A stretch of 64,000 nt of DNA. Origin: an uncultured Pseudomonadales bacterium (GTDB taxonomy: Bacteria; Patescibacteriota; Microgenomatia; UBA1400; UBA12028). This document shows, piece after piece, positions 20,464-37,000 of the stretch. The stretch lies in NCBI GenBank assembly GCA_964509365.1, contig CAZDWN010000002.1:67701-131700 (forward strand). Reading direction: 5' to 3'. How positions within the stretch are numbered: position 1 is the stretch's first letter; each line of letters begins with the position of its first letter. The position numbers were made by a program, and so were the translations under genes. Under the pieces are notes generated by a model, which worked only from the letters and a program-made list of their open reading frames with translations, did not search any database and was not told where the DNA came from.

Positions 20464-20496
20464 TTGACACTTCACTTCAAAATTCGTCATTATAAA
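20464..20496 (+). promoter_or_regulatory. candidate sigma70-like promoter upstream of the surface-protein cluster
   Basis: Perfect TTGACA at 20464-20469, 18-nt spacer, CATTAT at 20488-20493, only ~12 nt before the ATG at 20505. It lies in the 135-bp gap after the divergent histidine kinase. Weak call. Confidence 0.25.
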
Positions 20497-21593: not shown

Positions 21594-21658
21594 AAAATCA
21601 AACAGACTATTGACAGCATACTCATCCATTCGTCATGCTAGCTACAGATATTGCATGT

Positions 21659-22735
21659 ATGAAAAAATTCCTCACTTCAGTTCTTCGTTTGTTTGTCATG
21701 ATCGTCACGTTGTCGTCACTGACAATGGGCTTTTTTGTAGCTGCCACCACTCCAGTAGAGGCTGTCGCCGCGGGTGAGACGTACATGCGCTGTGATCGGA
21801 TGAAAGCAGGGATTGCACCTGGCGCGTGTCTCGTCGTCTTTACGTCATCTTCGACGGCCGCGACTGAGACGACCATCAAGATTACGTTGGACGCTGAGTG
21901 GGTCAGCGCGACAAATTTTTCCACGAGCGCAGCAAACTATACAGTGGCCACTTCTGGGACGGGGACGACGCTCCCTGCTGGTGTCACGGCGATGCCAGGC
22001 ATCACCACAGCAGACAACGTGACTGGCAATACGATTCGTTTCCCAGTCACGAACCTCACGAATAGTACAAAATATGGCTTTTATATCACGGGAACTGGCT
22101 TGCTGCTCAATCCGGCTGCCTCGACCACCATCTATCACACGATCTTTACGCGCACTGGTGCTGATGCGGCGACTGCCGATACGAAAGATGTTGCCGTGCC
22201 GACCATTGCGGATGATCAGATCGTCGTGACCGCCACTGTTTCCCCGTCATTTACGTTTGTTTTTAACAACAATGCACAAGCGTTAGGTGCTCTCTCATCC
22301 TCAGCTCCGGTATCTGGGTCTGGCACGACGATCACGATCACGACCAACGCTCCAAATGGCTGGTTTGCTTGGGTGCGGGACAGCAACGCGGGACTGACGT
22401 CTGCCAACGCCTCGAAAACGATTGCCACAACAGGGACGATCAATGCGGCACCATCTTCGCTCTCCAACGGTGTAGAAGGATACGTACTCGATACGGATCT
22501 GACGACTGACTTTGCTGCCGGTGGCACAGTGACAATCGATCCAGAGTACCTTGGTGCTGATACCGTCTCTGGGGGTACATTATCGGCGACTGATTACCAG
22601 CCGATCGCCTCTTCAGGTGGGACTGCTGGTGGCGATGTGCTTACCTTGATCCCACGCGCCTCGATCGCGGGCAATACTCCTGCTGCCAGTGATTACACTG
22701 ATACCTTGACGGTGGTCGGGGCTGGACGATTCTAA
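21659..22735 (+). CDS. secreted surface protein, family A, tandem paralog
   Basis: Start taken at MKKFLTSVLRLFVMIV (signal peptide). About 92% protein identity to 20505..21593 but only about 80% nucleotide identity, with many synonymous changes. Confidence 0.5.
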   Translation: MKKFLTSVLRLFVMIVTLSSLTMGFFVAATTPVEAVAAGETYMRCDRMKAGIAPGACLVVFTSSSTAATETTIKITLDAEWVSATNFSTSAANYTVATSGTGTTLPAGVTAMPGITTADNVTGNTIRFPVTNLTNSTKYGFYITGTGLLLNPAASTTIYHTIFTRTGADAATADTKDVAVPTIADDQIVVTATVSPSFTFVFNNNAQALGALSSSAPVSGSGTTITITTNAPNGWFAWVRDSNAGLTSANASKTIATTGTINAAPSSLSNGVEGYVLDTDLTTDFAAGGTVTIDPEYLGADTVSGGTLSATDYQPIASSGGTAGGDVLTLIPRASIAGNTPAASDYTDTLTVVGAGRF

Positions 22736-22758: not shown

Positions 22759-24927
22759 GTGATGAAGTATATTATTCCCCTTACGATCGGACTTTTTCTT
22801 TTTGCTTTTCCCGTGCGTGCCGTTGAGCTTGAGGCGAGCCAATCCGCCCAAATCCCGATTCTCCCTGCTCCCGACACTCCTATCAATTTGACAGTCTCGC
22901 CCGTGAGTTTGAGTCTAGAGACAGATCCAGGCGTCCCGGTAAAGTCAGAGATCAAAGTGCGCAACAACTCGACGAGTTCTGAACAACTGCAGATCACCAT
23001 CGGTACCTTTGTCGCCGATAGCAACGGTGATAAACCGAAGCTGCTGGATGCAAAACCTGCAGATACCTTTATCCCTTGGCTGTCCGTGGATCCTGAACCA
23101 TTTGTCCTCAATCCTGGTGAGTGGAAGACGATGCCAGTGAGTTTTTCGCCTCCGAAAGAAGCGTCACTTTCCTACTACTACACGATCCAAGTGAGACGGA
23201 CGAGCACGATCAAAGGTGCTGATGGGAAAGCCATCGTCTCTGGTGTCCCGGCGATCCTGGTCCTGGCGACAGTGAACTCTCCAGATTCGCGTCGAGAGTT
23301 ACAGCTCGATTCATTTGTAGCGAAATCTCCGTTTTTGGAGTTTTTGCCTCAGGAGTTTGTGCTATCGATCAAAAATAGTGGCAATGTCCATATCGCACCG
23401 ACTGGAAATATTTTTATCGATGGCCAAGGCAAAAAAGATTTAGCAGTTCTCTCGTTTAACCCTGGATCGAGTGTGATCTTACCGCAGACAACTAGGCAGT
23501 TTCCGATCGTCTGGGATGATGGATTTCCGGTTCGTGTCAAAAATGTGACGGGGGAAAAAGATCAAAAGACTGGTGATGAAAAACAAGCGATGACGCTGGA
23601 ATGGAACCCAGATAAAGTGAAATCACTTCGGTTTGGGAAGTACACTGCGCATTTGATTATGGTGTATGACAATGGCGAGCGAGATGTCCCGATCGAGTCG
23701 ACAGTCTCGTTTTGGGTAATTCCGGTTCGCATCATCATTGCGATCATTGCTGTCCCGACGTTACCGACACTCCTGGTCTATCTGATCATGCGCCGGCGCA
23801 TGCGAAAACTGCAGGCCAAAGCGACAGTTCCGGTGGTCATATTGTGCATCGGAGTGGCATGTCTGTTTGCACCTGCAGTCCATGCACAGGAGCCAGTGGC
23901 CAGTGCGAGTGCGCAAGAGTCGATTCAGATCTTACCTGTCCCTGACACTCCCATTAATTTGACTGTCTCGCCAGTGAGCTTGAGTCTCGAGACCGATCCT
24001 GCGGTGCCAGTAAAATCAGAGATCAAGATTCGAAACAATGCGACCAGTTCCGAGCAGCTTCAGGTGACTGTGGGGACGTTTATCGCTGACGAAAGTGGTG
24101 ACAAACCAAAACTACTCGATCCGAAGCCGACCGATGCTTTTATCTCCTGGATGCATGTCGATCCGGCACCTTTTGTCATCAATCCTGGTGAATGGAAAAC
24201 GATGAGTGTCGAGTTTACCCCACCCAAAGAAGCGTCACTTTCCTATTACTATACGATCATGGTCAAGCGTACGAGCACCGTCAAAGGGGCAGATGGCAAA
24301 GCGGTTGTCTCAGGTGTCCCGGCGATCCTCGTCCTGGCGACCGTCAACTCGCCTGATGCCGTCAGACAACTCGAAGTTGAATCTTTTACTGCCAAGCATG
24401 CATTCCTGGAATACTTGCCAGAGGAGTTTGAAGTCACACTCAAAAATACCGGCAACGTGCACTTGAGTCCGAGTGGAAATATTTTCCTCGATGGCCAAGG
24501 GAAAAAAGACCTCGCCGTGCTCTCGCTCAATCCAGCGTCGAGTCTTGTCCTCCCCGGTACCAGTCGAAAGTTTACGATCTCCTATGACGATGGTTTTCCA
24601 GTTTTCGAGCCGGTCAGCGAAGCCGGGAAAGATGTGCAGAGTGCAAATGGTCAGCAAGAGCGAAAACTCAAATGGGACTTCTCCAAAGCCGATCGATTGC
24701 GCATTGGGAAGTTTACGGCGCACCTACTCATGGTCTATGATAATGGTGAGCGTGATGTCCCCGTAGAATCATATGTTAGTTTTTGGATCATACCTTGGAA
24801 ATTGCTATGCGTCGCTATTCTCATCATGAGCTTTGCGCTCTTCGGTTTGTACTCCATCGTCCGCACCATCGTGCGCGCGGTGAAGGCAAAGAAAAAAGTC
24901 TCGCAATCTCCGCCGCTTGCTTCCTGA
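22759..24927 (+). CDS. fusion of two DUF916/DUF3324-like cell-surface units (each: signal peptide, Ig-like ectodomain, C-terminal TM anchor with basic tail)
   Basis: GTG start. Unit 1 (aa 1-~350) ends in a TM plus RRRMRK and runs in frame, without stop, into the signal peptide of unit 2 (VVILCIGVACLFAPAVHAQEP). The two units are ~70% identical. The ORF ends 30 nt after an A6 tract. Confidence 0.5.
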   Translation: MMKYIIPLTIGLFLFAFPVRAVELEASQSAQIPILPAPDTPINLTVSPVSLSLETDPGVPVKSEIKVRNNSTSSEQLQITIGTFVADSNGDKPKLLDAKPADTFIPWLSVDPEPFVLNPGEWKTMPVSFSPPKEASLSYYYTIQVRRTSTIKGADGKAIVSGVPAILVLATVNSPDSRRELQLDSFVAKSPFLEFLPQEFVLSIKNSGNVHIAPTGNIFIDGQGKKDLAVLSFNPGSSVILPQTTRQFPIVWDDGFPVRVKNVTGEKDQKTGDEKQAMTLEWNPDKVKSLRFGKYTAHLIMVYDNGERDVPIESTVSFWVIPVRIIIAIIAVPTLPTLLVYLIMRRRMRKLQAKATVPVVILCIGVACLFAPAVHAQEPVASASAQESIQILPVPDTPINLTVSPVSLSLETDPAVPVKSEIKIRNNATSSEQLQVTVGTFIADESGDKPKLLDPKPTDAFISWMHVDPAPFVINPGEWKTMSVEFTPPKEASLSYYYTIMVKRTSTVKGADGKAVVSGVPAILVLATVNSPDAVRQLEVESFTAKHAFLEYLPEEFEVTLKNTGNVHLSPSGNIFLDGQGKKDLAVLSLNPASSLVLPGTSRKFTISYDDGFPVFEPVSEAGKDVQSANGQQERKLKWDFSKADRLRIGKFTAHLLMVYDNGERDVPVESYVSFWIIPWKLLCVAILIMSFALFGLYSIVRTIVRAVKAKKKVSQSPPLAS

Positions 24928-25817
24928 TCACTGCAGTGCTGTCACTGTGTGCCCCGCAGTTGGTGCATGCAGCTGAAGGTATCCGTATCCAACCACTGTA
25001 CATGGAGCTCACTCTCTCGGAGACGATTCAATCGGCTTCAGACATGTTGATCCTTGAAAATCAAACAACCTCGACCCAGCGAGTCTCTTTTTCAGCGTTG
25101 GATGTGCATGGTGAAGATGAGCAAGGGAATGTCCAGTTTGCCAGTGGCGTCGGTGGCAAAGATTCTCAAGCGGTTTCCTATGTATCGTTGGCGACTGATT
25201 CGGCTGTGTTGGCTCCTGGTGAGAAATACAGTCTGACGGTAACGGTAAAAAATTCCCAAGAACTTTCGCCTGGCGGACATTACAGCGCTCTCGTTGCTAG
25301 ATTCTTCGATCAAAATGAGACTGCTACTTCCCCACGGGTGCAACCAGCTGTGTCGACGCTCTTACTCACGCGAAAAATTGGAGGCGAGCGCTATCACATT
25401 TCATTGACCTCTATTGCAGGAAGTGAACGATGGATCCACTACGCCCTTCCAAAGCATTTTGAATTGACATTTACAAACGACGGAAACATTCACCTCGTGC
25501 CGCACGGCACGATCAGCGTCGTTGATATGTTTGGGAGACAAGTGGAAAAAGGAATCATCAATGAAGCCTCGACGATCATCTTGCCACAAAATCGCCGTAC
25601 CTTGCAGCAAGAGTTGTATACGGTCTCACGCTCACTGCCACTAATGCTCTACACGGTCAATGTCTCCGGAGCGACCACGCCAGGGGACGTACCGTTCTCT
25701 CGCCAGTTCTCCTTTATCTACGTCTCTTCGATCGGGCTGGTCGTCTTGGCGCTTTTCGTGATCTTGATTGTACTCGTCATCTGGAAGTTGAGACGTCGCC
25801 GACGGAGCCACTTATGA
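24783..25817 (+). CDS. third DUF916/DUF3324-like surface unit; probably the frameshifted continuation of 22759..24927
   Basis: Signal peptide (KEKSLAISAACFLITAVLSLCAPQLVHAAEG) lies in the -1 frame relative to the upstream ORF, directly after the A6 tract 24892-24897. C-terminal TM plus RRRRRSHL. First in-frame ATG at 24807 precedes the signal peptide awkwardly. Confidence 0.4.
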   Translation: MDHTLEIAMRRYSHHELCALRFVLHRPHHRARGEGKEKSLAISAACFLITAVLSLCAPQLVHAAEGIRIQPLYMELTLSETIQSASDMLILENQTTSTQRVSFSALDVHGEDEQGNVQFASGVGGKDSQAVSYVSLATDSAVLAPGEKYSLTVTVKNSQELSPGGHYSALVARFFDQNETATSPRVQPAVSTLLLTRKIGGERYHISLTSIAGSERWIHYALPKHFELTFTNDGNIHLVPHGTISVVDMFGRQVEKGIINEASTIILPQNRRTLQQELYTVSRSLPLMLYTVNVSGATTPGDVPFSRQFSFIYVSSIGLVVLALFVILIVLVIWKLRRRRRSHL

Positions 25818-26470
25818 TCGCACTCAATCGAAAAAAGAAACTCAGCATGTTCGCCATCGCAGGGGGGATCGTCCTCATTCTGCTTGGTGTCGCTTGGTTT
25901 CGCATGTATCGTGATGCATTTGGGAAGATCCAGACAGATTTGTCAAAACGCTCCCAGGAATTTATAGATGCAGAGCGGGCAAAATCGCAAAGTAGTTGGA
26001 AAGAAATTCACTTGGGGACTCCAGTACCGCAAGCTGGCGATGTCGGGACGAGATTTTCAACTCCGTGTTTTACGATTGCACTGCCGTTTACGATTCGCGA
26101 TCAGCATATCGACAACAAAGATGGCTCATGTACCTTTGCGGTTCGCGTCCTCTTCCCTCCAGCACGGTTAGTAGTTTGGGCTCGCCCACTTCGCATCACT
26201 TTATCCGAAGATACGGCGGTGACGCTGCGTCGCTCAAAACGAGATGTGTACACCGAGTCACAGTTGAGTACTTCGACAGTTCCTGATGTCGTGCAGTTTC
26301 GCTCAAGCGATGAATTGATTCTGTTTTTTACCAAAGGAACGATGGAGTATTCCTTTGCATTTACCAATGTCGTCAGTGAAAAGCTCAAAGCTTCCGATTT
26401 GCAAGCGATGCTCGATGGCTTTACCCCGTTCACACAACCTACTCTAGCTCCGAAACCACTCAAGCCGTAA
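25814..26470 (+). CDS. membrane-anchored hypothetical protein
   Basis: ATGA overlap with the upstream stop. N-terminal TM (FAIAGGIVLILLGVAWF). 218 aa. No motif recognised. Confidence 0.4.
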   Translation: MIALNRKKKLSMFAIAGGIVLILLGVAWFRMYRDAFGKIQTDLSKRSQEFIDAERAKSQSSWKEIHLGTPVPQAGDVGTRFSTPCFTIALPFTIRDQHIDNKDGSCTFAVRVLFPPARLVVWARPLRITLSEDTAVTLRRSKRDVYTESQLSTSTVPDVVQFRSSDELILFFTKGTMEYSFAFTNVVSEKLKASDLQAMLDGFTPFTQPTLAPKPLKP

Positions 26471-26528
26471 AGTTCTATTGTCAGAATGTGAGAACGGGGT
26501 TTACTATTACCTTGGCAGTCCAGAAATT

Positions 26529-27581
26529 ATGAAACGAAAACAGCTCTCACTTTTTTTGATGTTCTTCCTCTTCGCGATGCCCGCCTCTACGACGTATGAG
26601 ATGCACGATTTCGGCTTTGGTGCTGGTGGGAGTGGCGTCTCTGACTCTACGACCTATTCAGGCATTGGAATCGTTGGTGAGCAAGGCGGATCGCAGCAAA
26701 ATATTGGGTCGACGTATAACCTTGGTCCTGGCCTCATCTTTACGCAGCAGACCAATGTCCCTGGTGCGCCTACATTTACCAATCCAGCCAGCTACTACAA
26801 CAAATTGAAATTTGTATTGGACACCGGAAGCAATCCTACAGATACGCTCTATGCGATTGCCATCTCGACAGACAACTTTACCACGACCAATTTTATTCAA
26901 GCTGACAATACCATTGGCTCCAGTGCTGTGTATCAGACGTATTCTGCCTGGGGTGGTGGGACGGGTGCAAACGTCATTGGACTTGCGGTCTCCACGACGT
27001 ACAAGATCAAAGTCAAAGCGGTCCAGACCAAATATACCGAGACAGAATATAGTGCCGAGGCGTCAGCGACGACGAGCGCTCCTACATTGACGTATGATAT
27101 CGACGTCTCGCCGACCGACAATGATACCAGTGCTCCCTATATCGTCGCCTTTGGCACACTCAATGTCGGCAGCGTGACCACGGCCTCAGACAAAGTCTGG
27201 GTCGACGTCGATACCAATGCCGAGAATGGCGCGGCCGTCTATGTCTATGATGGATCCGCGGGCTTAGTGAGTGCAAATGCGAGCGCGACGATCACGTCTG
27301 CGACTGCAGATCTTTCGTCAGCATCCACAGGGTATGGATTACAGATTGCTTCCGTTGCACAAAGTAGTGGTGGCCCCCTAGCAAAGGTCTCGCCATTTAA
27401 TGGCAGTGGAGAAAATGTCGGCGCGATTACGACGGCATCGACGCAGATATTCTCGACGACCTCACTTCCGATCACTGCTGGACGAGGCTCGGTGTATGTC
27501 AAAGCGCGTGCGAGCTCCTCGACGCCAGCCGCGAGTGATTACTCTGATACCATCACCATGATTGCAAGTGGCTCATTTTAA
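26529..27581 (+). CDS. secreted surface protein sharing the family-A C-terminal domain (...STPAASDYSDTITMIASGSF)
   Basis: Start at MKRKQLSLFLMFFLFAMPA (signal peptide). The C-terminal ~170 aa align with the C-terminal domain of 20505 and 21659 (NGAAVYVYDGSAGLVSANASATI vs NGWFAWVKDSNAGLTSANASKTI). The last 31 nt are duplicated at 28252. Confidence 0.5.
   Translation: MKRKQLSLFLMFFLFAMPASTTYEMHDFGFGAGGSGVSDSTTYSGIGIVGEQGGSQQNIGSTYNLGPGLIFTQQTNVPGAPTFTNPASYYNKLKFVLDTGSNPTDTLYAIAISTDNFTTTNFIQADNTIGSSAVYQTYSAWGGGTGANVIGLAVSTTYKIKVKAVQTKYTETEYSAEASATTSAPTLTYDIDVSPTDNDTSAPYIVAFGTLNVGSVTTASDKVWVDVDTNAENGAAVYVYDGSAGLVSANASATITSATADLSSASTGYGLQIASVAQSSGGPLAKVSPFNGSGENVGAITTASTQIFSTTSLPITAGRGSVYVKARASSSTPAASDYSDTITMIASGSF
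27551..27581. repeat. 31-bp perfect direct repeat, copy 1 (CATCACCATGATTGCAAGTGGCTCATTTTAA)
   Basis: Identical 31-mer recurs at 28252-28282. Flanking bases differ on both sides. The TA cassette lies in the 670 bp between the copies. Confidence 0.9.
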
Positions 27582-28251: not shown

Positions 28252-28282
28252 CATCACCATGATTGCAAGTGGCTCATTTTAA
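28252..28282. repeat. 31-bp perfect direct repeat, copy 2
   Basis: Identical to 27551-27581. Lies 13 nt after the hepT stop. Contains the last 29 nt (…KMSHLQSW*) of the minus-strand 941-aa gene. Confidence 0.9.
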
Positions 28283-30995
28283 AAGACCACAGATGCTTCC
28301 AGTACGTCCATACTCCGATACACAGGAGAGTGAGGACGAAGAAACTTCCAAATAGCGCGAATTTATTTGCGAGGAGCAGATACAGCTCGCAGAGCAGCGC
28401 CAGCACGATAAAAAATTCTAGTCCAAAGTCGATCAACAGATATGCCGCTTCATCTAGCAGTTCGTGCGCTTTGAGCCCCATGGGATGAGTGTTGGGCCGG
28501 ATGGTCAATGCATGAGAAACATCATAACCCGATGGTACACATTCGGAGAGCGCATCAAACCCTTTCTTGTCGACCGAAAAACAGAGCGACTGCGTGCTCG
28601 TCGGCACTAGTAGTGCAAATTCGCCAAGCATATTTGTCGTCGCAAATCGATGGACTGCATTCTTCTCAGATTCTTTGAGCGTCACTCGTGCACCAGCGAT
28701 GGCTTCCCCGGTGACACTATTATGGATGGTCCCATGGAAAATCTGATGAGTATGGACTGACTTCATGTACGAGAGGTGCTCCAGGAAGGCTGGAATCAGC
28801 TCGATGACGGGGATACCAAGTCGCAGTGAGACAGAGGTAACCAAGCAAAAGAGAATAAAAAGCAGCATGCACAAAAAGAACAGATCCCAAAATCGTGGTG
28901 AGTCAGTAAGAGTCTGCAAAAATGTCTCGCCGGCTTCGACGATGTTTTGTCCAATATTGGTGTAGTACGAAGTAAACAAAGCGAGTGAAAATGGAAGTCT
29001 CTTGAGCGTCAGCGTCGGATAGGGTATGACAGTATCAAAGGAAATTGTAACTCTAATTGTCTGAGTCGCATAGCCGATCGATCGCAGTTCGATCTCATAC
29101 TGTCCAGCTGAGAGATTAAATGGCAATCGACCTCGATGATCAGAGAGCAAGAGACCTTTCACTGAGCTGCCTCCTGGTCGGATCGGGAGATAGATTCTCG
29201 CTGACTTGTCATAGCGCTTCACAGAAGCATGCACATTTTCGATGGGGTTCCCTTTCTCATCTTGGATGATGAGCGGTTGAATAAGCCGGATCGTTGCAAT
29301 GGGTTTTTCTTCCACGGATCCAGTTTTTGACTCGACGCGAAGCATCAATAGATAGGTGTCAGTTTGTTCAGGTGTCCTCATCTTGCCGACGAACTTATCT
29401 GGAGCGATTTGCATCAATGTGGCGATCGCCAGATCTGGCTCGCTGGTGGCATCGTCGGTGAGTCCGAGTATTTTTGCAGGTCGGAGCGAAGTGACTGCTG
29501 ACTTCACGCGGTCCCCGTGTGAGATGGAAAGTTGCAGATCGATCAGCTGATTGGCGACGATGCTCAGTCGTTGGCCATTTTGATCCGATTGCTCTCCATA
29601 AATTGGACTTCCATCTTGCAGCAAGACAAATGACTCAGTGATCGCTTTTGGCATCAAGGCATCGGTTTTGGCAGTCTTAAACGTAAAGATATCCGACGAG
29701 GTGATTTTCCTGCCATCTTGATACACGTCAAACACGACATAGTAGTGAGTGTCATCTTTTAGGCCCGGGATATTTATTTCGTGCACCGTTAGAGGTGCGG
29801 TTGTTGAAAAACTTCCAGTGAGAGCCTTGGGAGCGAGGCCATATCTGACGGTCAGATTGGCAGGGGCACTCAAACGGACTGAAAAAATCGCTGAGGTATC
29901 AAATAATGATCCCAGCGCAATACTGGTAAACGGATGTGAACCCAACGGCGCTGATACTGTTGGACTGCCAGTGCTTGTGACTGCAATCGGCGTGGGAGTC
30001 GGTGTGTTCGTGCTCGTATTCACGTAGAGATACGTGATTGTTTGCGTCGCGACTTCACTTTGTGCTGGTGCGATGATCTGGGCGTGGATGGGGATCACCA
30101 CTTTTTTTTCTCCAGTGTACTGCTCATTTGTTTTGAGAGTGAAGTGAACCGATTGATTTGGCAAATTCGCCGGATAGCTGGCAATACTCCAAGTGATCGT
30201 TCGATTCACCGTATCGATGACTGGAGGAGTGTTCCCATAGGCGTTTGTAGCGCTACCGATGACATACTCCAAGATGTCTTGGCTCGCGGTGGTTTGCCCT
30301 TCTGGCGTCCCGAGGTCCCACGATGCTTGGAGAGTCATTGGTCCAGTCACCATTGCGTCAGTCCCATAGGTGAACGTATAGCCAAGCTCGGTATCTTGGC
30401 GATTGAGCTCATTATGCTGATCAGGAGTGAGTGTGGCCGTGAGATTTGAGGTCGCCGGTGGGACGATCGCATTGATGACGATTTGATCGTTTGCGGTGGT
30501 CTCGGTCCAGACGTTTTGTGTATCGATGACGGTACTGCCTGCATCTTGAGTGCTGACGACCGTCAAGTATTCCGCCGCCGACCGATTGAGAGGAAACCCC
30601 CCAGAAATAAAAAATGCATAGGTGGTCCCAGGGCTTAGATCGCCGATGGCAAATGTCAGTGTGTGCCCCGTGATACTACTCGCTGTGAACCCAGTCAATG
30701 GAAGTGGAGTCAAGCCTGAGGGGATGCCGACGGTCGTCGTGGTGTAGTCTGATGCAGTGGTCGAAAAATGAGTTCCAGCAGTCCAGCGGCTATCGAGCTG
30801 AAGGACAAGTTTGGATTCCGTCCCGATGCTCGCTGGATTGACCTCTACTAGTATGTCACCAGGAGCGATTCCCGCTTTGGTTCGATCGGGTCGGATCAAG
30901 ACTTCGGTAAAGTTTCCTGCGTGGACAGTTTGGATGAAAAAAGACCCACTGAAGATGAGTAAAAAGCAAGCCAGAATCCGCGTCAAAAATCGCAT
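28254..30995 (-). CDS. large secreted/membrane surface protein: family-A N-terminal domain, CarboxypepD_reg-like beta-sandwich repeats, C-terminal multi-TM region
   Basis: Start at MRFLTRILACFLLIFSGSFF. N-terminal 190 aa (RPDRTKAGIAPGDILVEV...TANDQIVINAIVPP) is homologous to the N-terminus of 20505 and 21659. YEIELRSIGYATQTIRVTIS resembles the CarboxypepD_reg fold. 3-4 C-terminal TM helices. Confidence 0.5.
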   Translation of the reverse strand: MRFLTRILACFLLIFSGSFFIQTVHAGNFTEVLIRPDRTKAGIAPGDILVEVNPASIGTESKLVLQLDSRWTAGTHFSTTASDYTTTTVGIPSGLTPLPLTGFTASSITGHTLTFAIGDLSPGTTYAFFISGGFPLNRSAAEYLTVVSTQDAGSTVIDTQNVWTETTANDQIVINAIVPPATSNLTATLTPDQHNELNRQDTELGYTFTYGTDAMVTGPMTLQASWDLGTPEGQTTASQDILEYVIGSATNAYGNTPPVIDTVNRTITWSIASYPANLPNQSVHFTLKTNEQYTGEKKVVIPIHAQIIAPAQSEVATQTITYLYVNTSTNTPTPTPIAVTSTGSPTVSAPLGSHPFTSIALGSLFDTSAIFSVRLSAPANLTVRYGLAPKALTGSFSTTAPLTVHEINIPGLKDDTHYYVVFDVYQDGRKITSSDIFTFKTAKTDALMPKAITESFVLLQDGSPIYGEQSDQNGQRLSIVANQLIDLQLSISHGDRVKSAVTSLRPAKILGLTDDATSEPDLAIATLMQIAPDKFVGKMRTPEQTDTYLLMLRVESKTGSVEEKPIATIRLIQPLIIQDEKGNPIENVHASVKRYDKSARIYLPIRPGGSSVKGLLLSDHRGRLPFNLSAGQYEIELRSIGYATQTIRVTISFDTVIPYPTLTLKRLPFSLALFTSYYTNIGQNIVEAGETFLQTLTDSPRFWDLFFLCMLLFILFCLVTSVSLRLGIPVIELIPAFLEHLSYMKSVHTHQIFHGTIHNSVTGEAIAGARVTLKESEKNAVHRFATTNMLGEFALLVPTSTQSLCFSVDKKGFDALSECVPSGYDVSHALTIRPNTHPMGLKAHELLDEAAYLLIDFGLEFFIVLALLCELYLLLANKFALFGSFFVLTLLCIGVWTYWKHLWSFKMSHLQSW

Positions 30996-31057
30996 AGATT
31001 CATCATAGATGAATTTGCACAAAAGCAAAACAAGAAGACTGGTATTTTCGTCTTTAT

Positions 31058-34000
31058 TTGGCGTATTCACACGCCTCAAATGTTGCTACAGTTGAGATTG
31101 TGTCAAACACTTTTCGCAGACACATTGCTACCCTTCTATTACTGACAGGGGTCTTTTTCTTATGGAGACCTACTGCGGTTTTTGCTGCCACCGGAACCTT
31201 CAAACAGATCAATTTCCAGGGGAAAGTGGTCAATAAGACCACAGGAACGAATGTCGCCGACGGATCGTACACATTTGTGTTTAGTTTGTATACTGTCTCA
31301 TCGGCAGGCTCAAATATTTGGACCGAGTCAAAGAGTGTGACAGTCACCAATGGTATTTTTCAGACGTTTTTGGGCGATACAACGTCTCTTCCAGGATCGG
31401 TTGATTTCAATACTGACAATTTGTACCTGGGGATCAACTTCAATGGCGATGGTGAGATGAGTCCTCGGGTCCGATTTACCGCTGTTCCGCAAGCGATGAA
31501 TGCGCTCAAAGTCGCAGGTCTCACGGTCACAGATACGACTGGTACGTTGACGATCCCAAATGGCACGACGATCGCCTTCTCTGGGACAAACAATTTGACC
31601 TTTACGACCACGGGATCGACTGGCTTGACGTTGCCGACGACTGGTACCTTGGCGACCCTGGCCGGTTCAGAAGTCCTGACCAACAAGACCATTGGCTCGA
31701 CTGGTTTGGTCTTCTCTGGCGCCTCGACTGATATCGATACTGCAGCAGCCGAAGGGTTGGTGTTGCAGGGTCGCGCGGCATCTTCCTTCAACACGACGAG
31801 TGGTGCGATCTCGTTTCAAGCTGCTGGCTCGGGCACAATCTCGACTGTACAGATCGGTGCAGGTGGCGCTGGATCGACGACTCCCGATTACTTGGCATTA
31901 GATGTGAAAAGTGATACTGGAGATCCTGCAGGTGGAGCCGAAGGCTACATTTACTACAACACGTTTGATAACAAATTCCGCTGCTACCAAAACTCTGGCT
32001 GGACTGATTGTGTCGGCAGTGGAGTCACAGGGACTGGGACAGCTGGTACATTACCGATTTACACTGGTGCTGGTGCGACTATTGGCGATTCTTGGCTATC
32101 GCAAGCCAGTACCACTTTGACCCTGAGTACCGCGACGATTATCAGTGATGCGAGTCTCGCAACACTGACGTCCTCGACGGCATTGAGTCTCAATCCAAAT
32201 ACAGGGACGAGTTACACGTTGGATTCTACCGCCACAACTTTGAGTTTGTTCGGGACGGCAACAGCCCTGACATTTGGAAACTCCGCTTCGACGTTGGCAG
32301 TTGGTGCGTCTGGTGGCTTGACGGTCACTCCAGGTGGAGATATGACGTTTTCTGAAGCCCACAACAAAGGCTTCACGATCTCTGGGACGACCGCGACAAA
32401 TCGGACGACAGACCTCATGACCATCACACAAGCATCTGGTGCAGGCACTGGCACTGGAAATTTATTGCAATTGATAAATAATGACACCGATTCGACTGCA
32501 GCCCTCTTGGATATCAATCAAGGGACGGCTGGTGGTACAGGTATCAACTTCCCATTGGGTATCAGTACCGGTAATGCGATTAACATTTTTAGTACCATTA
32601 CGACTGGAAATGCGATCGCCATTCCTGCGATCGCGACCGTCACATCAGGCTCGGCCATCAACCTCAGTGGAGGTGTTACCGGAGCAGTAGCTGCCATGAC
32701 TGGAAGTTACATCAGTGTCTCACCGACTCGATCGAAGACATCTGGTGCGACGCTGATATCTGATACTGGTCATTTCCTCAGTCTCGTGCGTAGCAACTCA
32801 AATACTATTGCCGGTGGGACACTCGATATGCAAGGTGACGTGGCCGTGATCTCGTCCACATGTTCGCAAAGTGCGGGCACCTGCAGTGACTCATCACATA
32901 TTTTGTCACTGGCACAAAGTTACACTGCTGCTACAGGAAATGTCTTTGACGTGACCAATGCCGGCACGGGCAAAGGATTATTCCTCACTTCTTCTTCGAC
33001 GGGAAATTTGATGGAGCTTGATAGCTCAGGAGCAGTGACTACTCCAAAGGGCATCGTGATTGCCGCGACGAATGGCGCTGGTGTGATTACTGACGCACTG
33101 GATGTCTCTGATGCTGAGATCGTGAACGGTATCAATCTGGGAGCTAACAATATTTATTCTGTCGGCAATGTGAATTTTGCCGGAACTGCTACTGGTACAT
33201 CAGCAACAGGAATTGTACTTCCAGTAAAAACAGACTCTGGAGATCCGACCGTCACGCAAGCAAATGGAGAAATGTACTACAACAGTAATAGTGGCAAATT
33301 CCGCTGCTATCAAGCTTCCGCTTGGGTAGATTGTATAAACACGAGTAGTGGCATCACTGGGACGGGGACCGCTGGCACGCTGCCAATCTATACTGGTGCT
33401 GGTGCCACGATTGGAGATTCTTGGCTCTCGCAAGCAAGTACCACGTTGACACTCAGTACTGCTACTGCGATTAGCGACTCCGTCCTAGCGACATTGACTT
33501 CATCAACTGCATTAAGTCTCAATCCAAATACAGGAACCAGTTACACGCTCGATTCCACTGCGACGACACTCAATCTTTTCGGGACGGCAACAGCCCTGAC
33601 ATTTGGCAATTCCGCTTCGACGTTGGCAGTTGGCGCTTCTGGTGGATTGACTGTGACTCCAGGAGGTAATTTGACGATTGCTGAAGCTGCGACCAAAGGG
33701 ACCACGTTTACATCTGACTTGACCAGCGCAGGTCGCACGACAGATGTGGTGACGATTTCTCAGGCCAATGATGCGACTAATAATAGTACTGGAAATTTAC
33801 TTCAACTCACAAACTCAGATACCAGCTCAACCACTGCATTGCTTGATTTGAATCAAACTGCCCCTGCCGGCGGAATGATTAATATACCCGCAGGTATGTC
33901 CACTGGGACAGCGATCAATTTTGGAATGGGCATAACTACTGGGAAAATAATGCAGGTAATTGCTGCTTCCGTGACTTCGGGCAATGTGCTGGGATCATCT

Positions 34001-37000
34001 GGTGGCGACAATATTTCTGGAACATTAACAGCATTTTCCGGAAAGTACATTAGTTTGTCTCCGGTAAGAACTCACGTTGGAAACACGACCATTACTGAGT
34101 CTGGAAATTTTTTGAGTTTGGCAAGAAACGATGTGCAGGTGACAGGAACAGGCACTATCGCAATTACAGGAGACATGGCACTTCTGACATCTACATGCAG
34201 TCAGAGTGGTGGTTCATGTACTGACTCCTCACATATTTTGAACTTGCAGCAAAACTATGCTGCGGCGAATGGAAACGTATTCGAGCTCACCAATGCTGGG
34301 ACTGGCAAAGGAGTCTCACTCACTTCTTCATCGACCGGTACATTGATGGAATTGGATTCCTCTGGAGCGGTGACGACGGCAAAAGGATTGGTTATCGCCG
34401 CGACCAATGGCGCTGGAGTAATCACGGATGCGCTCGATGTCAGTGATGCAGAGATCGTCAATGGTATCAATGTGGGAGCGAACAATATCTATTCTGTCGG
34501 AAATGTGAATTTTGCTGGGACAGCGACTGGTACATCAGCAACAGGAATTGTACTTCCAGTAAAAACAGATTCTGGCGATCCGACCGTCACGCAAGCAAAT
34601 GGAGAAATGTACTACAACAGCAATAGTGGCAAATTTAGATGCTACCAAGCATCTGCATGGACTGATTGTATCGGGAGTGGAAGTGGTATTACTGGGACTG
34701 GGACCGCTGGGACATTACCGATTTATACGGGTGCTGGTGCGACGATTGGTGATTCTTGGTTGTCCCAGGCCTCGACGACGTTGACTCTCAGTACTGCGAC
34801 CATCATCAGTGATGCTTCACTCGCCACGTTGACGACTTCGACAGCATTTAATCTCAATCCAAATACTGGTACCAGTTATACGCTTGATTCCACAGCCACG
34901 ACTCTCAATCTCTTCGGTACAGCGACTGCGCTGACGTTCGGAAATTCAGCGACGACACTTGCATTCGGTGCCTCTGGAGGCACGACCATAACGCCTGGCG
35001 GAACCTTGACTATCGCAGAAGCGGCAACAAAGGGCACTATTCTGACTTCTACACTTACTAGTGGAGCCAGAAGTACATCTGTCTTCAGTATTACGCAAGC
35101 CAATGATGGGACCAATGACTTCGACTCTAGCACCACTGGATTGGTAAACCTAGTCAACGATGACCTTGGTTCTGCCTCTGCAATCGTATGGATCGATCAA
35201 AATGGGACTTCAAGCAGTGGTGATGAATCTGGTATCCACATCTCTGCTCCAAATACTGGCTCAGCTACCGGTATGGAGATCAATGTCGGAGATAATGCAT
35301 CAAACAACTATTCCGGAGGTGGTGGTCTGATTATTGATGACGCGTATGAAATGACGTCAGGCTCAGGGATAAGAATTGGAACTAGTACAGGCATTGGCTC
35401 TGGTACGACTCAGACTTTCTCGGGTAATTACATGGATATCTCTACTGAACTCGGTGCAGGTACGTTCTCACAGAGCTCTGGCACCAGAACTGAAAGCGGT
35501 CACTATCTCAACGTAGGGAGAGCGTACACCACGAGTGGCACAGGTACAGTCACAATTACGGGTGATTTAGCTTCCTTGGCTGCCACCTATACCGAGACCG
35601 CCGGTACCATTACTGATACATCAAATATCCTTTCATTGGCTCAGAACTGTGATGCGACGTCTACGGATTGTACAGGTGCAGTAATTGATTTGACCAACTT
35701 CGGTACTGGTGCAGCGCTTGATCTGGCGCAAACGAATACATCAGGGACACAAACAAATGGAATCTTTTTCAATCGAAACGGTACGAGTGGCACGACGACA
35801 AATGGAATTAACATCACCAATACCGCCGGCACACTTACGTATGGATTGACTTTTACGGGTACGACCGCGATTGGTACAGACATCAAACTACAAGGTGGGG
35901 AAACCATTAGCAACTCTGTTGCTGATACCATAGTGCTCGCCTCTGATGCCACGAATGGTGCTGGCGTAGCGAGACTTCCAGTGAAGACGGATACTGGAGA
36001 CCCAACGCTTAACGTCGAGGGGAACATTTACTACAATACCTTCGACAATAAATTCCGATGCTATCAAAACGCTGCCTGGACCGACTGTATCGGCTCTGGT
36101 GGAGCGACTGCTTTTGATACGATCAGTGATCCGACTGGGACCGGTGCGATCGCGATGGGCAACAACGCTCAGACACTTGATTTCATCTCTCCCTCGACTG
36201 CGACCGCGATGGATGGTTTGACCGTCACGTATACGAATGGCTCCGCGACTGACGTGACCACTCAACGCGGTTTTGTCGTAGCGAATCTCAATGATGCAGC
36301 GTCTACGGGTACTCTGGAATCTTTGGCTGTGATCGAAAACCGCGATATCAATGAGACATTAGGCAATGCACTATTGATCGATCAAGCTGGCGCGGGTACG
36401 ACGACCAATGCCCTTAAGATCAGTAATTCTGGAGGAAATATCACGACGGGTATCGCCATCGTCGACGGTGCTGGCGGCACTCTGACGACGGGCATCTCAG
36501 TCACGGGTGCGATGACCACCGGATTGACGATAGGCAGTGGGTCGGACGCGATCACCAGCGGCATCGTCCTTGGATCGACGGGTATTTCGACAGATATCAC
36601 CTTACAAAATGGAGAGAAGATCGACAATGATACCGACGGATATATCCAGTTTTCCGTCGGATCAAACTCCGGTCTTGTGATCAATGATGGCGGTCAGTCA
36701 TTTGGATTGGCGACCGCTGCAAGTGATGGCGGCGTATTTGGAGGTGCCGCGTATTATGGATTCAAAGACGCAGCCAACTCAGTCCAGTACTTTCTCTTGA
36801 CGCAAGCCGCGACCGCGAATACGGGGACGACGAGTCAAGCTGCACTCACATTTGCGACTCCAGTGAATACGACGGGTACAAACGTAAACGAAGGACTTGC
36901 GATCGCGACGACGATCGGCAATGCGAGTGCCGGGGCGAACACCGCCAACATCATCTCGATCGCGGCGCTTACTGGCGATGACCAAGTGACACTTAACGGA

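Follow-up and report, generated by a model that had tools for sequence, protein, structure and literature searches.

The window analysed here, a 64,000-nt stretch of contig CAZDWN010000002.1 (assembly GCA_964509365.1) placed by GTDB in the Patescibacteriota, encodes between 22759 and 25817 three paralogous surface-anchor proteins, called units 1, 2 and 3 below. Comparative analysis showed that the locus is a typical copy of a large, so far uncharacterised surface-protein gene cluster of Patescibacteria, and that two of its junctions are out of the ordinary. Units 1 and 2 form one in-frame fusion, and unit 3 follows unit 2 in the -1 frame with no canonical start codon near its signal peptide. 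The out-of-frame junction recurs in a sister strain, where the pattern of codon differences indicates purifying selection on unit 3, and the same type of junction occurs in other lineages. We tentatively favour a reading in which unit 3 is a separate protein started inside the segment that encodes the unit 2 transmembrane (TM) helix.

Three units and two junctions in a conserved gene cluster

Units 1 and 2 share one open reading frame (ORF) of 722 amino acids (aa) from GTG 22759 to 24927, or of 721 aa from ATG 22762, the latter being a public database entry (P0001). Unit 1, aa 1-343 counted from ATG 22762, comprises a signal peptide (22762-22821, MKYIIPLTIGLFLFAFPVRA, ending …FPVRA|VE), a two-domain ectodomain, a TM helix (23725-23790, VRIIIAIIAVPTLPTLLVYLIM) and the start of a basic loop, RRRMRKLQAK. 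As the initial annotation had reported, the TM helix and RRRMRK of unit 1 run without a stop into the signal peptide of unit 2, and unit 2 ends in VRAVKAKKK, with a run of six adenines (A6), followed by the short 0-frame extension VSQSPPLAS and its stop. Also correct was that the -1 frame behind A6 encodes the signal peptide of unit 3. The first 30 nt of this signal-peptide sequence overlap the unit 2 tail in another frame, and a near-cognate ATC stands at 24906. The public gene call for unit 3 (P0165) is a 271-aa product from ATG 25002, which cuts off the signal peptide. A product of all three units would measure 1,018 aa from ATG 22762, not the ~1,060 aa first given. The initial annotation was silent on three codons in the frame of unit 3, TTG 24783, TTG 24795 and ATG 24807, which lie upstream of the A6 run.

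A profile-guided scan yielded 80 genome loci, essentially all from Patescibacteria as judged by informative record titles, and hidden Markov model (HMM) profiles for the two subfamilies of units, A and B, were run over all of them. Gene order was fixed in 80+ loci: one to three A-type units are followed by one B-type unit, accompanied in the loci examined by a small membrane protein and conserved ~360-aa secreted proteins. Units 1 and 2 belong to subfamily A and are 64-65% identical, and unit 3 is a distant paralogue of subfamily B. By this comparison, the tandem triplication first proposed is an old, ancestral and widely conserved gene order, A-A-B, and not a local or recent triplication. Orthologous units are mostly separate genes with their own stops and starts, and nearly all downstream units have an ATG, GTG or TTG of their own within a few codons of the signal-peptide core. 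When the orthologous loci were compared for an uninterrupted ORF, about 110 junctions yielded a single in-frame fusion besides that of the window (A-B in L001).

Tandem A copies within a locus were 92-95% identical in L028, L029, L037, L040, L042, L047, L050, L055, L063, L071, L075 and others, and these same copies were ~46-90% identical to their best orthologue elsewhere (mostly 55-80%; only the close pair L028/L029 came near 90%). This pattern of identities points to concerted evolution or gene conversion. The A copies of the window are 64% identical to each other versus 50-54% to their nearest orthologues, and A copies within the window's nearest relatives are 44-54% identical. L019 (7016-8087) and L076 (6979-8003) each have an additional A copy that is split between two to four frames, reflecting either decay or assemblies with real frameshifts. 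Many of the metagenome-assembled genome records that carry the cluster (L009-L088) are titled 'uncultured Pseudomonadales', 'Bdellovibrionales' or 'Gammaproteobacteria', labels that look unreliable; others in this range are titled Saccharimonadales, Levyibacteriota, Moranbacteria and WWE3.

The unit 2/unit 3 junction in a sister strain and in other lineages

An independent copy of the junction was obtained from a sister strain. Contig L006 (3,091 nt), from an independent Logan short-read assembly, was reached via the 90% cluster mate of the 218-aa protein encoded behind unit 3. It aligns to 23797-26889 at 93% identity over 3,090 aligned bases, and the one indel, 3 nt long and near 26879, lies well past the unit 2/unit 3 junction. 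The A6 run, the 0-frame tail VSQSPP(SQS), the position of the stop codon and the -1 frame of unit 3 are the same as in the window. Unit 2 differed from L006 by 35 synonymous and 5 non-synonymous codons and the unit 3 body by 46 and 5, respectively. From the latter counts, the unit 3 body is under purifying selection, and unit 3 is therefore expressed and functional. Where the two frames overlap, the unit 2 frame across 24783-24891 showed 7 synonymous and 2 non-synonymous differences (unit 3 frame, 0 and 10), and across 24898-24927 5 and 2 (unit 3 frame, 0 and 6, the peptide nevertheless remaining hydrophobic). Nowhere in the alignment is divergence higher than in the unit 3 signal-peptide region (41 of 90 nt), which nevertheless keeps the cleavage site VHA|AEG.

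Divergence between the window and L006 is a mosaic. Differences reach 41 per 90 nt at 24877-24967 and only 0-2 per 90 nt across 24157-24787, and within 23797-24067 two of three bins have 19-23 differences per 90 nt and the third has 8. As read from this alignment, the mosaic suggests recombination or diversifying selection on particular segments.

Out-of-frame overlap between the start of B and the tail of A is the family norm, as shown by a census of 36 ordinary junctions with B in the -1 frame relative to A. An ATGA overlap was present in 19, the start followed the A stop in 7, and in about 8-9 of the 36 the ATG of B was drawn from the 'A-TGG' of a Trp codon in the A tail, giving a 27-48 nt overlap; the automatic start assignment for L011 in this census, 108 nt upstream, is doubtful. 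Beyond the window and L006, five lineages have no nearby canonical B start, and in all of them B is in the -1 frame. The design of the window, a Pro-rich 0-frame A tail overlapping the B signal peptide, is found in L010 (KVLPPSQPSS), L014 (SKLQRSPPPPSI), L091 (RKTPPAPLSP) and L092 (KKVPPVPLQS), and the distance from the Lys to the cleavage site is exactly 25 residues in the window, L006, L091 and L092. In L013 and the related pair L018/L046, AAAAAATAA replaces the AAAAAATGA of their relatives, a single G-to-A change that removes the ATG and keeps the stop (ATGA to ATAA).

The A run itself is present at this junction in the window, L006, L092, L013, L018 and L046, reduced to A-AAG in L091 (AGA AAG ACA) and absent from L010 (TCC AAG GTT) and L014 (TCC AAA TTG). 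Runs of A6 or longer occur in 31/73 ordinary A tails, so the run at the unit 2/unit 3 junction is unremarkable, and because L010, L014 and L091 lack it, the proposed slip site is not a conserved element.

Two further kinds of B start were observed. In L093 (3900-4080), B lies in the +1 frame and the stop falls two codons before an ATA. Behind this ATA come an n-region (KKGDATQR) and an h-region of textbook form, and canonical starts (TTG, ATG) occur only inside the h-region, which hints at non-AUG initiation in the group. In L051 (6800-7060) and L064 (6760-6990), the ATG of B immediately precedes the mature domain, and no signal peptide is found in any frame.

How unit 3 may be initiated

Our tentative preference is that translation of unit 3 begins at ATG 24807 or at TTG 24783/24795 and yields a separate protein. 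The proximal ATG of B, derived from A-TGG or ATGA as in many relatives, would have been lost in the window's clade, and initiation would have moved upstream in the same -1 frame, into the TM-coding segment of unit 2. A dispensable leader of 30-38 aa would thereby be added ahead of the unit 3 signal peptide, and the A6 run would simply encode the Lys-Lys of the unit 2 tail. The frame of unit 3 is open from 24783 and holds all three candidate starts, TTG 24795 being formed by Pro-Trp codons (CCT TGG). These belong to the FWxIPW motif, whose conserved Pro-Trp, read in the -1 frame, yields ATG, GTG or TTG. In 7/7 start-less lineages that frame is open from the Pro-Trp codons to the A stop (checked by eye for L010, L091 and L092). 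Base composition (T at the second codon position) in part dictates an open frame across the TM segment, hence an empirical background was used for comparison: 17/61 (28%) of A units with a downstream gene in another frame, and 24/40 ordinary -1 junctions. In addition, CCA-TGG, which gives ATG, occurs in 6/7 start-less lineages versus a lineage CCA usage of about 0.4-0.55. The upstream start ranks first because no other model predicts both that B is always in the -1 frame and that this frame has stayed open. Among the outcomes envisaged in the initial annotation, separate genes with a non-ATG start for unit 3 come closest to the comparative data, in which orthologues mostly have their own stops and starts.

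Several observations weigh against an upstream start. A same-strand overlap of 121-145 nt and a leader of 30-38 aa before a signal peptide are unusual, and the leader is not conserved as a peptide (the 0 synonymous and 10 non-synonymous differences to L006 given above). The Pro-Trp position of the window gives TTG, not ATG, and ATG 24807 is not preceded by a motif resembling a Shine-Dalgarno (SD) sequence, though this genome hardly uses SD. The start-less lineages may go back to two or three founding events, and shared ancestry would inflate the openness statistic. Moreover, in-frame fusions show that read-through into the next signal peptide is tolerated, as a frameshift would need.

An exact look-up found unit 3 in the protein collection neither from ATG 24807 nor from TTG 24783 (with a leading Leu). 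An SD motif is missing from most genes of the window and is therefore uninformative for choosing the unit 3 start. A promoter scan returned one weak 9/12 match inside unit 2 (24712-24741), which is not interpretable. A TATAAT-like hexamer lies 5-10 nt upstream of many ATGs in the window (12018, 15999, 53600, 54120, 57497, 60240), a placement that suggests the genome uses leaderless or very short-leader mRNAs.

Alternatively, a -1 slip on G-AAA-AAA (24891-24897) would carry some ribosomes into a unit 3 that has no start of its own, giving the 1,018-aa precursor with three ectodomains, to be cut by signal peptidase. We regard such recoding as unlikely, although unit 3 can indeed be reached by a -1 shift at A6, as first suggested. 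A6 falls right on the n/h boundary, is unchanged in L006 and recurs in L092; every start-less junction is in the -1 frame; and the lysines of the unit 2 tail would supply the positive n-region that unit 3 otherwise lacks. Further, C/A-AAA-AAA is followed by a stop within two codons in L013, or at once in L018 and L046, with B in the -1 frame, and the in-frame fusions (A-A in the window, A-B in L001) show a unit made as the continuation of the previous one. Known programmed -1 sites (dnaX, the A-AAA-AAG of IS3/IS911-type elements, the G/GT tail chaperones of phages) likewise combine an A run in lysine codons with a short 0-frame extension to a stop and a downstream -1 ORF without a nearby start. 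The hallmarks expected of them are, however, mostly missing from the window. The in-phase heptamer, G-AAA-AAA, does not fit X-XXY-YYZ cleanly, and A-AAA-AAG reads out of phase; the 0-frame is AAG AAA AAA GTC, where the A-site tRNA would re-pair perfectly and the P-site tRNA at 2 of 3 positions. No stimulatory structure was found downstream of A6 (fold z-scores -0.05 in the window and -0.87 in L006, with differing structures), the upstream SD-like AAGG is not conserved (CGAG in L006), and L010, L014 and L091 have the same arrangement with no slippery run or with A-AAG only. An A run is expected by chance given its frequency in ordinary A tails, and slippage gives no account of an open -1 frame reaching 35-44 codons upstream in each of the seven start-less lineages. 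A wider version, in which some Patescibacteria lineages of the family make a downstream unit as a continuation of the upstream one, with no start codon of its own, and signal peptidase then cuts the polytopic precursor at its internal signal peptides, would cover in-frame fusion in the window (A1-A2) and L001 (A-B) and slippage on a Lys-Lys A run in the window, L006, L092, L013, L018 and L046. This we consider quite improbable; if true, it would be a bacterial Sec-coupled polyprotein strategy with recoding. It is also doubtful that unit 3 starts at the near-cognate ATC 24906 at the head of its signal peptide, probably by re-initiation after the unit 2 stop with the A-rich tail as an unstructured leader. 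An ATH codon (H being A, C or T) lies near the n/h boundary in every start-less lineage (ATC in the window, L006, L010 and L091; ATT in L014 and L092), ATAA in L013, L018 and L046 is exactly at the ATGA position of relatives, and in L093 only ATA precedes a perfect n-region. The block AAAGAAAAAAGTNTCGCAATCTCC is kept between the window and L006 with sharp divergence right after it, and coupled initiation is plausible in an SD-poor genome. Ile codons are, however, common in signal peptides, with a chance of ~0.8 per 13-codon window by our own estimate, so 9/9 is not significant, and we dropped an ATH start as a universal explanation for want of statistical support. The ATH positions are unaligned between lineages, the resulting signal peptide has no positive n-region, near-cognate starts are very inefficient in bacteria studied so far, and this model accounts for neither the restriction to the -1 frame nor the openness of that frame further upstream.

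Sequencing error, an A6/A7 switch and pseudogene decay are all unlikely because L006 has the same A6, frame relation and stop, together with the pattern of codon differences. Homopolymers are typical sites of both errors and slipped-strand switching, and an A7 run, whether the true sequence or one state of a phase-variable tract toggling between two-unit and three-unit forms of the protein, would join the units cleanly, as units 1 and 2 are joined. The initial annotation had raised both options; each is very improbable. The short-read contig of the sister strain also reads A6 with no indel at the junction, L092 has A6 and the same framing, the tract being equally long in all three, and the same type of junction occurs without an A run in L010, L014 and L091. 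An A6 tract is short for a contingency locus, and the window has 85 runs of at least six A or T with no split genes in ORF scans. The 0-frame tail after the run is conserved (the 5 synonymous and 2 non-synonymous differences to L006) and fits the Pro-rich tail motif of other lineages, including L001, where it is in frame. A unit 3 in decay, its start codon lost and its product no longer made with a signal peptide, would match both the automatic call from ATG 25002 and the B units of L051 and L064. We judge this highly unlikely given the synonymous excess in the unit 3 body. Despite 45% nucleotide divergence, the signal peptide is still hydrophobic with VHA|AEG intact, its length is conserved in four lineages, and the arrangement is retained among lineages with B units at only about 57-59% identity.

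The unit 1/unit 2 fusion, fold relatives and neighbouring genes

In-frame fusion is scarce in the family. Among the about 110 junctions only the A-A fusion of the window and the A-B fusion of L001 (P0003, 648 aa) were found, and P0003 was the only fusion-length protein among the 150 best family representatives. The unit 1 tail, MRRRMRKLQAK, fits the A1-type consensus Y..M[KR][RW][RK].[RK] of other loci, and the junction reads …LVYLIM-RRRMRKLQAK-ATVPVVILCIGVACLFAPAVHA|QEP with no stop: one ORF with a TM helix, a positive loop and an internal signal peptide that ends in a site with small residues at -3 and -1 (predicted cleavage after 23886). The unit 1 stop would have been lost, leaving its basic cytoplasmic tail to double as the n-region of the unit 2 signal peptide. 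The 721-aa product would then insert as signal peptide, ectodomain, TM helix, short basic loop and second signal peptide, and signal peptidase I would cut after AVHA, freeing unit 2. Independent initiation at ATG 23800 (MRK), within the basic stretch, would be an alternative start for unit 2. The predicted topology is self-consistent, with a TM helix running from outside to inside, a positive loop, and a signal peptide running back outwards to the AVHA|Q site, and processing by signal peptidase is a reasonable inference from it. Signal peptidase divides some bacterial polyproteins at an internal signal peptide, as in Bradyrhizobium FbcH, the cytochrome b-c1 precursor. They too have one ORF with a TM helix and a positive loop before an internal signal peptide with an AXA site, and the comparison fits the unit 1/unit 2 junction, as well as the unit 2/unit 3 junction if a frameshift occurs. 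Unlike FbcH, the partners fused here are paralogues, the fusion is rare (2 of about 110 junctions) and cleavage is a prediction. A search of a paper library for work on Patescibacteria frameshifting, or on bacterial polyproteins with internal signal peptides, gave nothing usable.

It counts against the fusion that it was seen in one assembly, L006 beginning 3 nt before ATG 23800. A metagenome scan for an independent copy gave only the distant loci L089 and L090, and for P0001 neither cluster mates nor an encoding contig are recorded. The fusion is a rare, probably tolerated, lineage-specific state.

The units belong to a family of 7,557 representatives at E<=0.001. AlphaFold2 (AF2) modelled unit 2 (pLDDT 75) as a pair of beta-sandwich domains ahead of a C-terminal TM helix, and the best specific fold matches of this model were Enterococcus WxLIP (9i25, 9i1y) and the chaperone-usher chaperones CsuC and CfaA. 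Searches of the window proteins against Pfam (hmmscan E<=0.1) and NCBIfam returned only weak generic immunoglobulin (Ig)/ASH-type domains. No match to DUF916, DUF3324, PapD or WxL was found in Pfam, NCBIfam or PDB sequence searches, and the A3 profile had no match to WxLIP chains in the PDB at E<=10. On these models and searches, the units are best described as Sec-exported proteins with two beta-sandwich domains and a C-terminal membrane anchor, WxLIP/PapD-like in fold only.

WxLIP proteins are defined by a signal peptide, DUF916, DUF3324 and a TM helix, are 337-365 aa long and are clustered with at least two WxL-domain proteins (PMC10599100). The units match the architecture of the WxLIP protein CscA of Gram-positive WxL/Csc clusters (PMC10599100), namely a signal peptide, two Ig-like domains and, at the C-terminus, a TM helix and basic tail, and at about 340-375 aa they have a WxLIP-like length (about 320-380 aa); both are encoded in clusters with other secreted surface proteins. 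The unit 2 model matched the WxLIP structures 9i1y and 9i25_C at E 1e-9 and TMt about 0.49. However, the units are not members of Pfam DUF916/DUF3324, their hosts are Patescibacteria and not Firmicutes, and their cluster neighbours are not WxL proteins (no WxL Pfam match; the model of the 366-aa neighbour has no WxL-domain match). The WxLIP motif NQIDKxxxYFDLK was not noticed in the unit sequences and, unlike WxLIP, the units form two subfamilies in fixed order with A often duplicated. With the PapD-like chaperones CsuC and CfaA, the units have the two-domain Ig-like fold in common (5d6h, 6k73, 4y2o; TMt 0.46-0.57), and one unit homologue was named 'PapD chaperone' by JGI. Those chaperones are soluble, periplasmic and encoded beside an usher gene, whereas the units are membrane-anchored, have no Pfam chaperone match and occur in a presumably monoderm host. 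No usher-like gene was found in the window cluster or in the related loci inspected.

Coordinates of the cluster and its junction elements are compiled in the table. The 366-aa protein encoded upstream of unit 1, 89% identical to its 362-aa neighbour, has 260 homologues that are 65-73% identical across Patescibacteria (A and B units, only about 35-50%). Its AF2 model (pLDDT 88) gave generic adhesin/MSCRAMM-like fold matches only, and there was no Pfam match. This partner family may supply the principal structural element of the system. A promoter-like site (20464-20493) lies just 5' of the gene for the 362-aa copy. At the other end, the stop of unit 3 and the ATG of the gene behind it overlap (ATGA). 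Directly adjoining the cluster are two predicted surface proteins of very large size, one of 941 aa with CarboxypepD_reg domains (28254-31079, minus strand) and an ORF of ~2,936 aa (31013-39820, plus strand); a protein of the 941-aa type adjoins the cluster in L001 too.

Table. Positions of the cluster genes, units and junction elements within the window.
Feature	Position	Strand	Basis
Partner-family protein copy 1, secreted, 362 aa	20505..21593	+	ORF list; 89% identical to next gene
Partner-family protein copy 2, secreted, 366 aa, two beta-sandwich domains	21635..22735	+	AF2, homologue search
Unit 1 (A1-type), no stop codon	22762..23799	+	HMM A score 521
Unit 1/unit 2 in-frame junction: basic loop RRRMRKLQAK and internal signal-peptide h/c region ATVPVVILCIGVACLFAPAVHA	23791..23886	+	Sequence
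Unit 2 (A2-type): ectodomain, TM 24796-24861, tail RTIVRAVKAKKKVSQSPPLAS, stop TGA 24925-24927	23800..24927	+	HMM A score 558
-1-frame stretch inside unit 2 TM and tail coding sequence, candidate unit 3 starts	24783..24896	+	ORF list
A6 run, Lys-Lys codons AAA AAA of unit 2 tail; proposed -1 slip site	24892..24897	+	Sequence
Unit 3 signal peptide SLAISAACFLITAVLSLCAPQLVHA, predicted cleavage before AEG	24897..24971	+	Sequence
Unit 3 (B-type) mature part, TM 25722-25784, tail KLRRRRRSHL	24972..25817	+	HMM B score 498
Membrane protein, 218 aa; a conserved fourth gene of such type follows B in related loci	25814..26470	+	ORF list, relatives
Secreted protein, 367 aa, second partner family, closes the conserved cluster	26478..27581	+	ORF list; same position in L001, L002, L005, L089

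The basic picture of three paralogous surface-anchor proteins is unchanged by this analysis. Automatic annotation misreads the locus, the public call for unit 3 losing its signal peptide, and the comparison defines a large, uncharacterised surface-protein cluster of fixed order in Patescibacteria. The in-frame fusion is a candidate for a bacterial polyprotein processed by signal peptidase. The start-less, conserved out-of-frame junction provides a clean natural test case for the initiation of internal operon genes in SD-poor bacteria of the candidate phyla radiation, where a distant internal start, a near-cognate start and a frameshift are the options.

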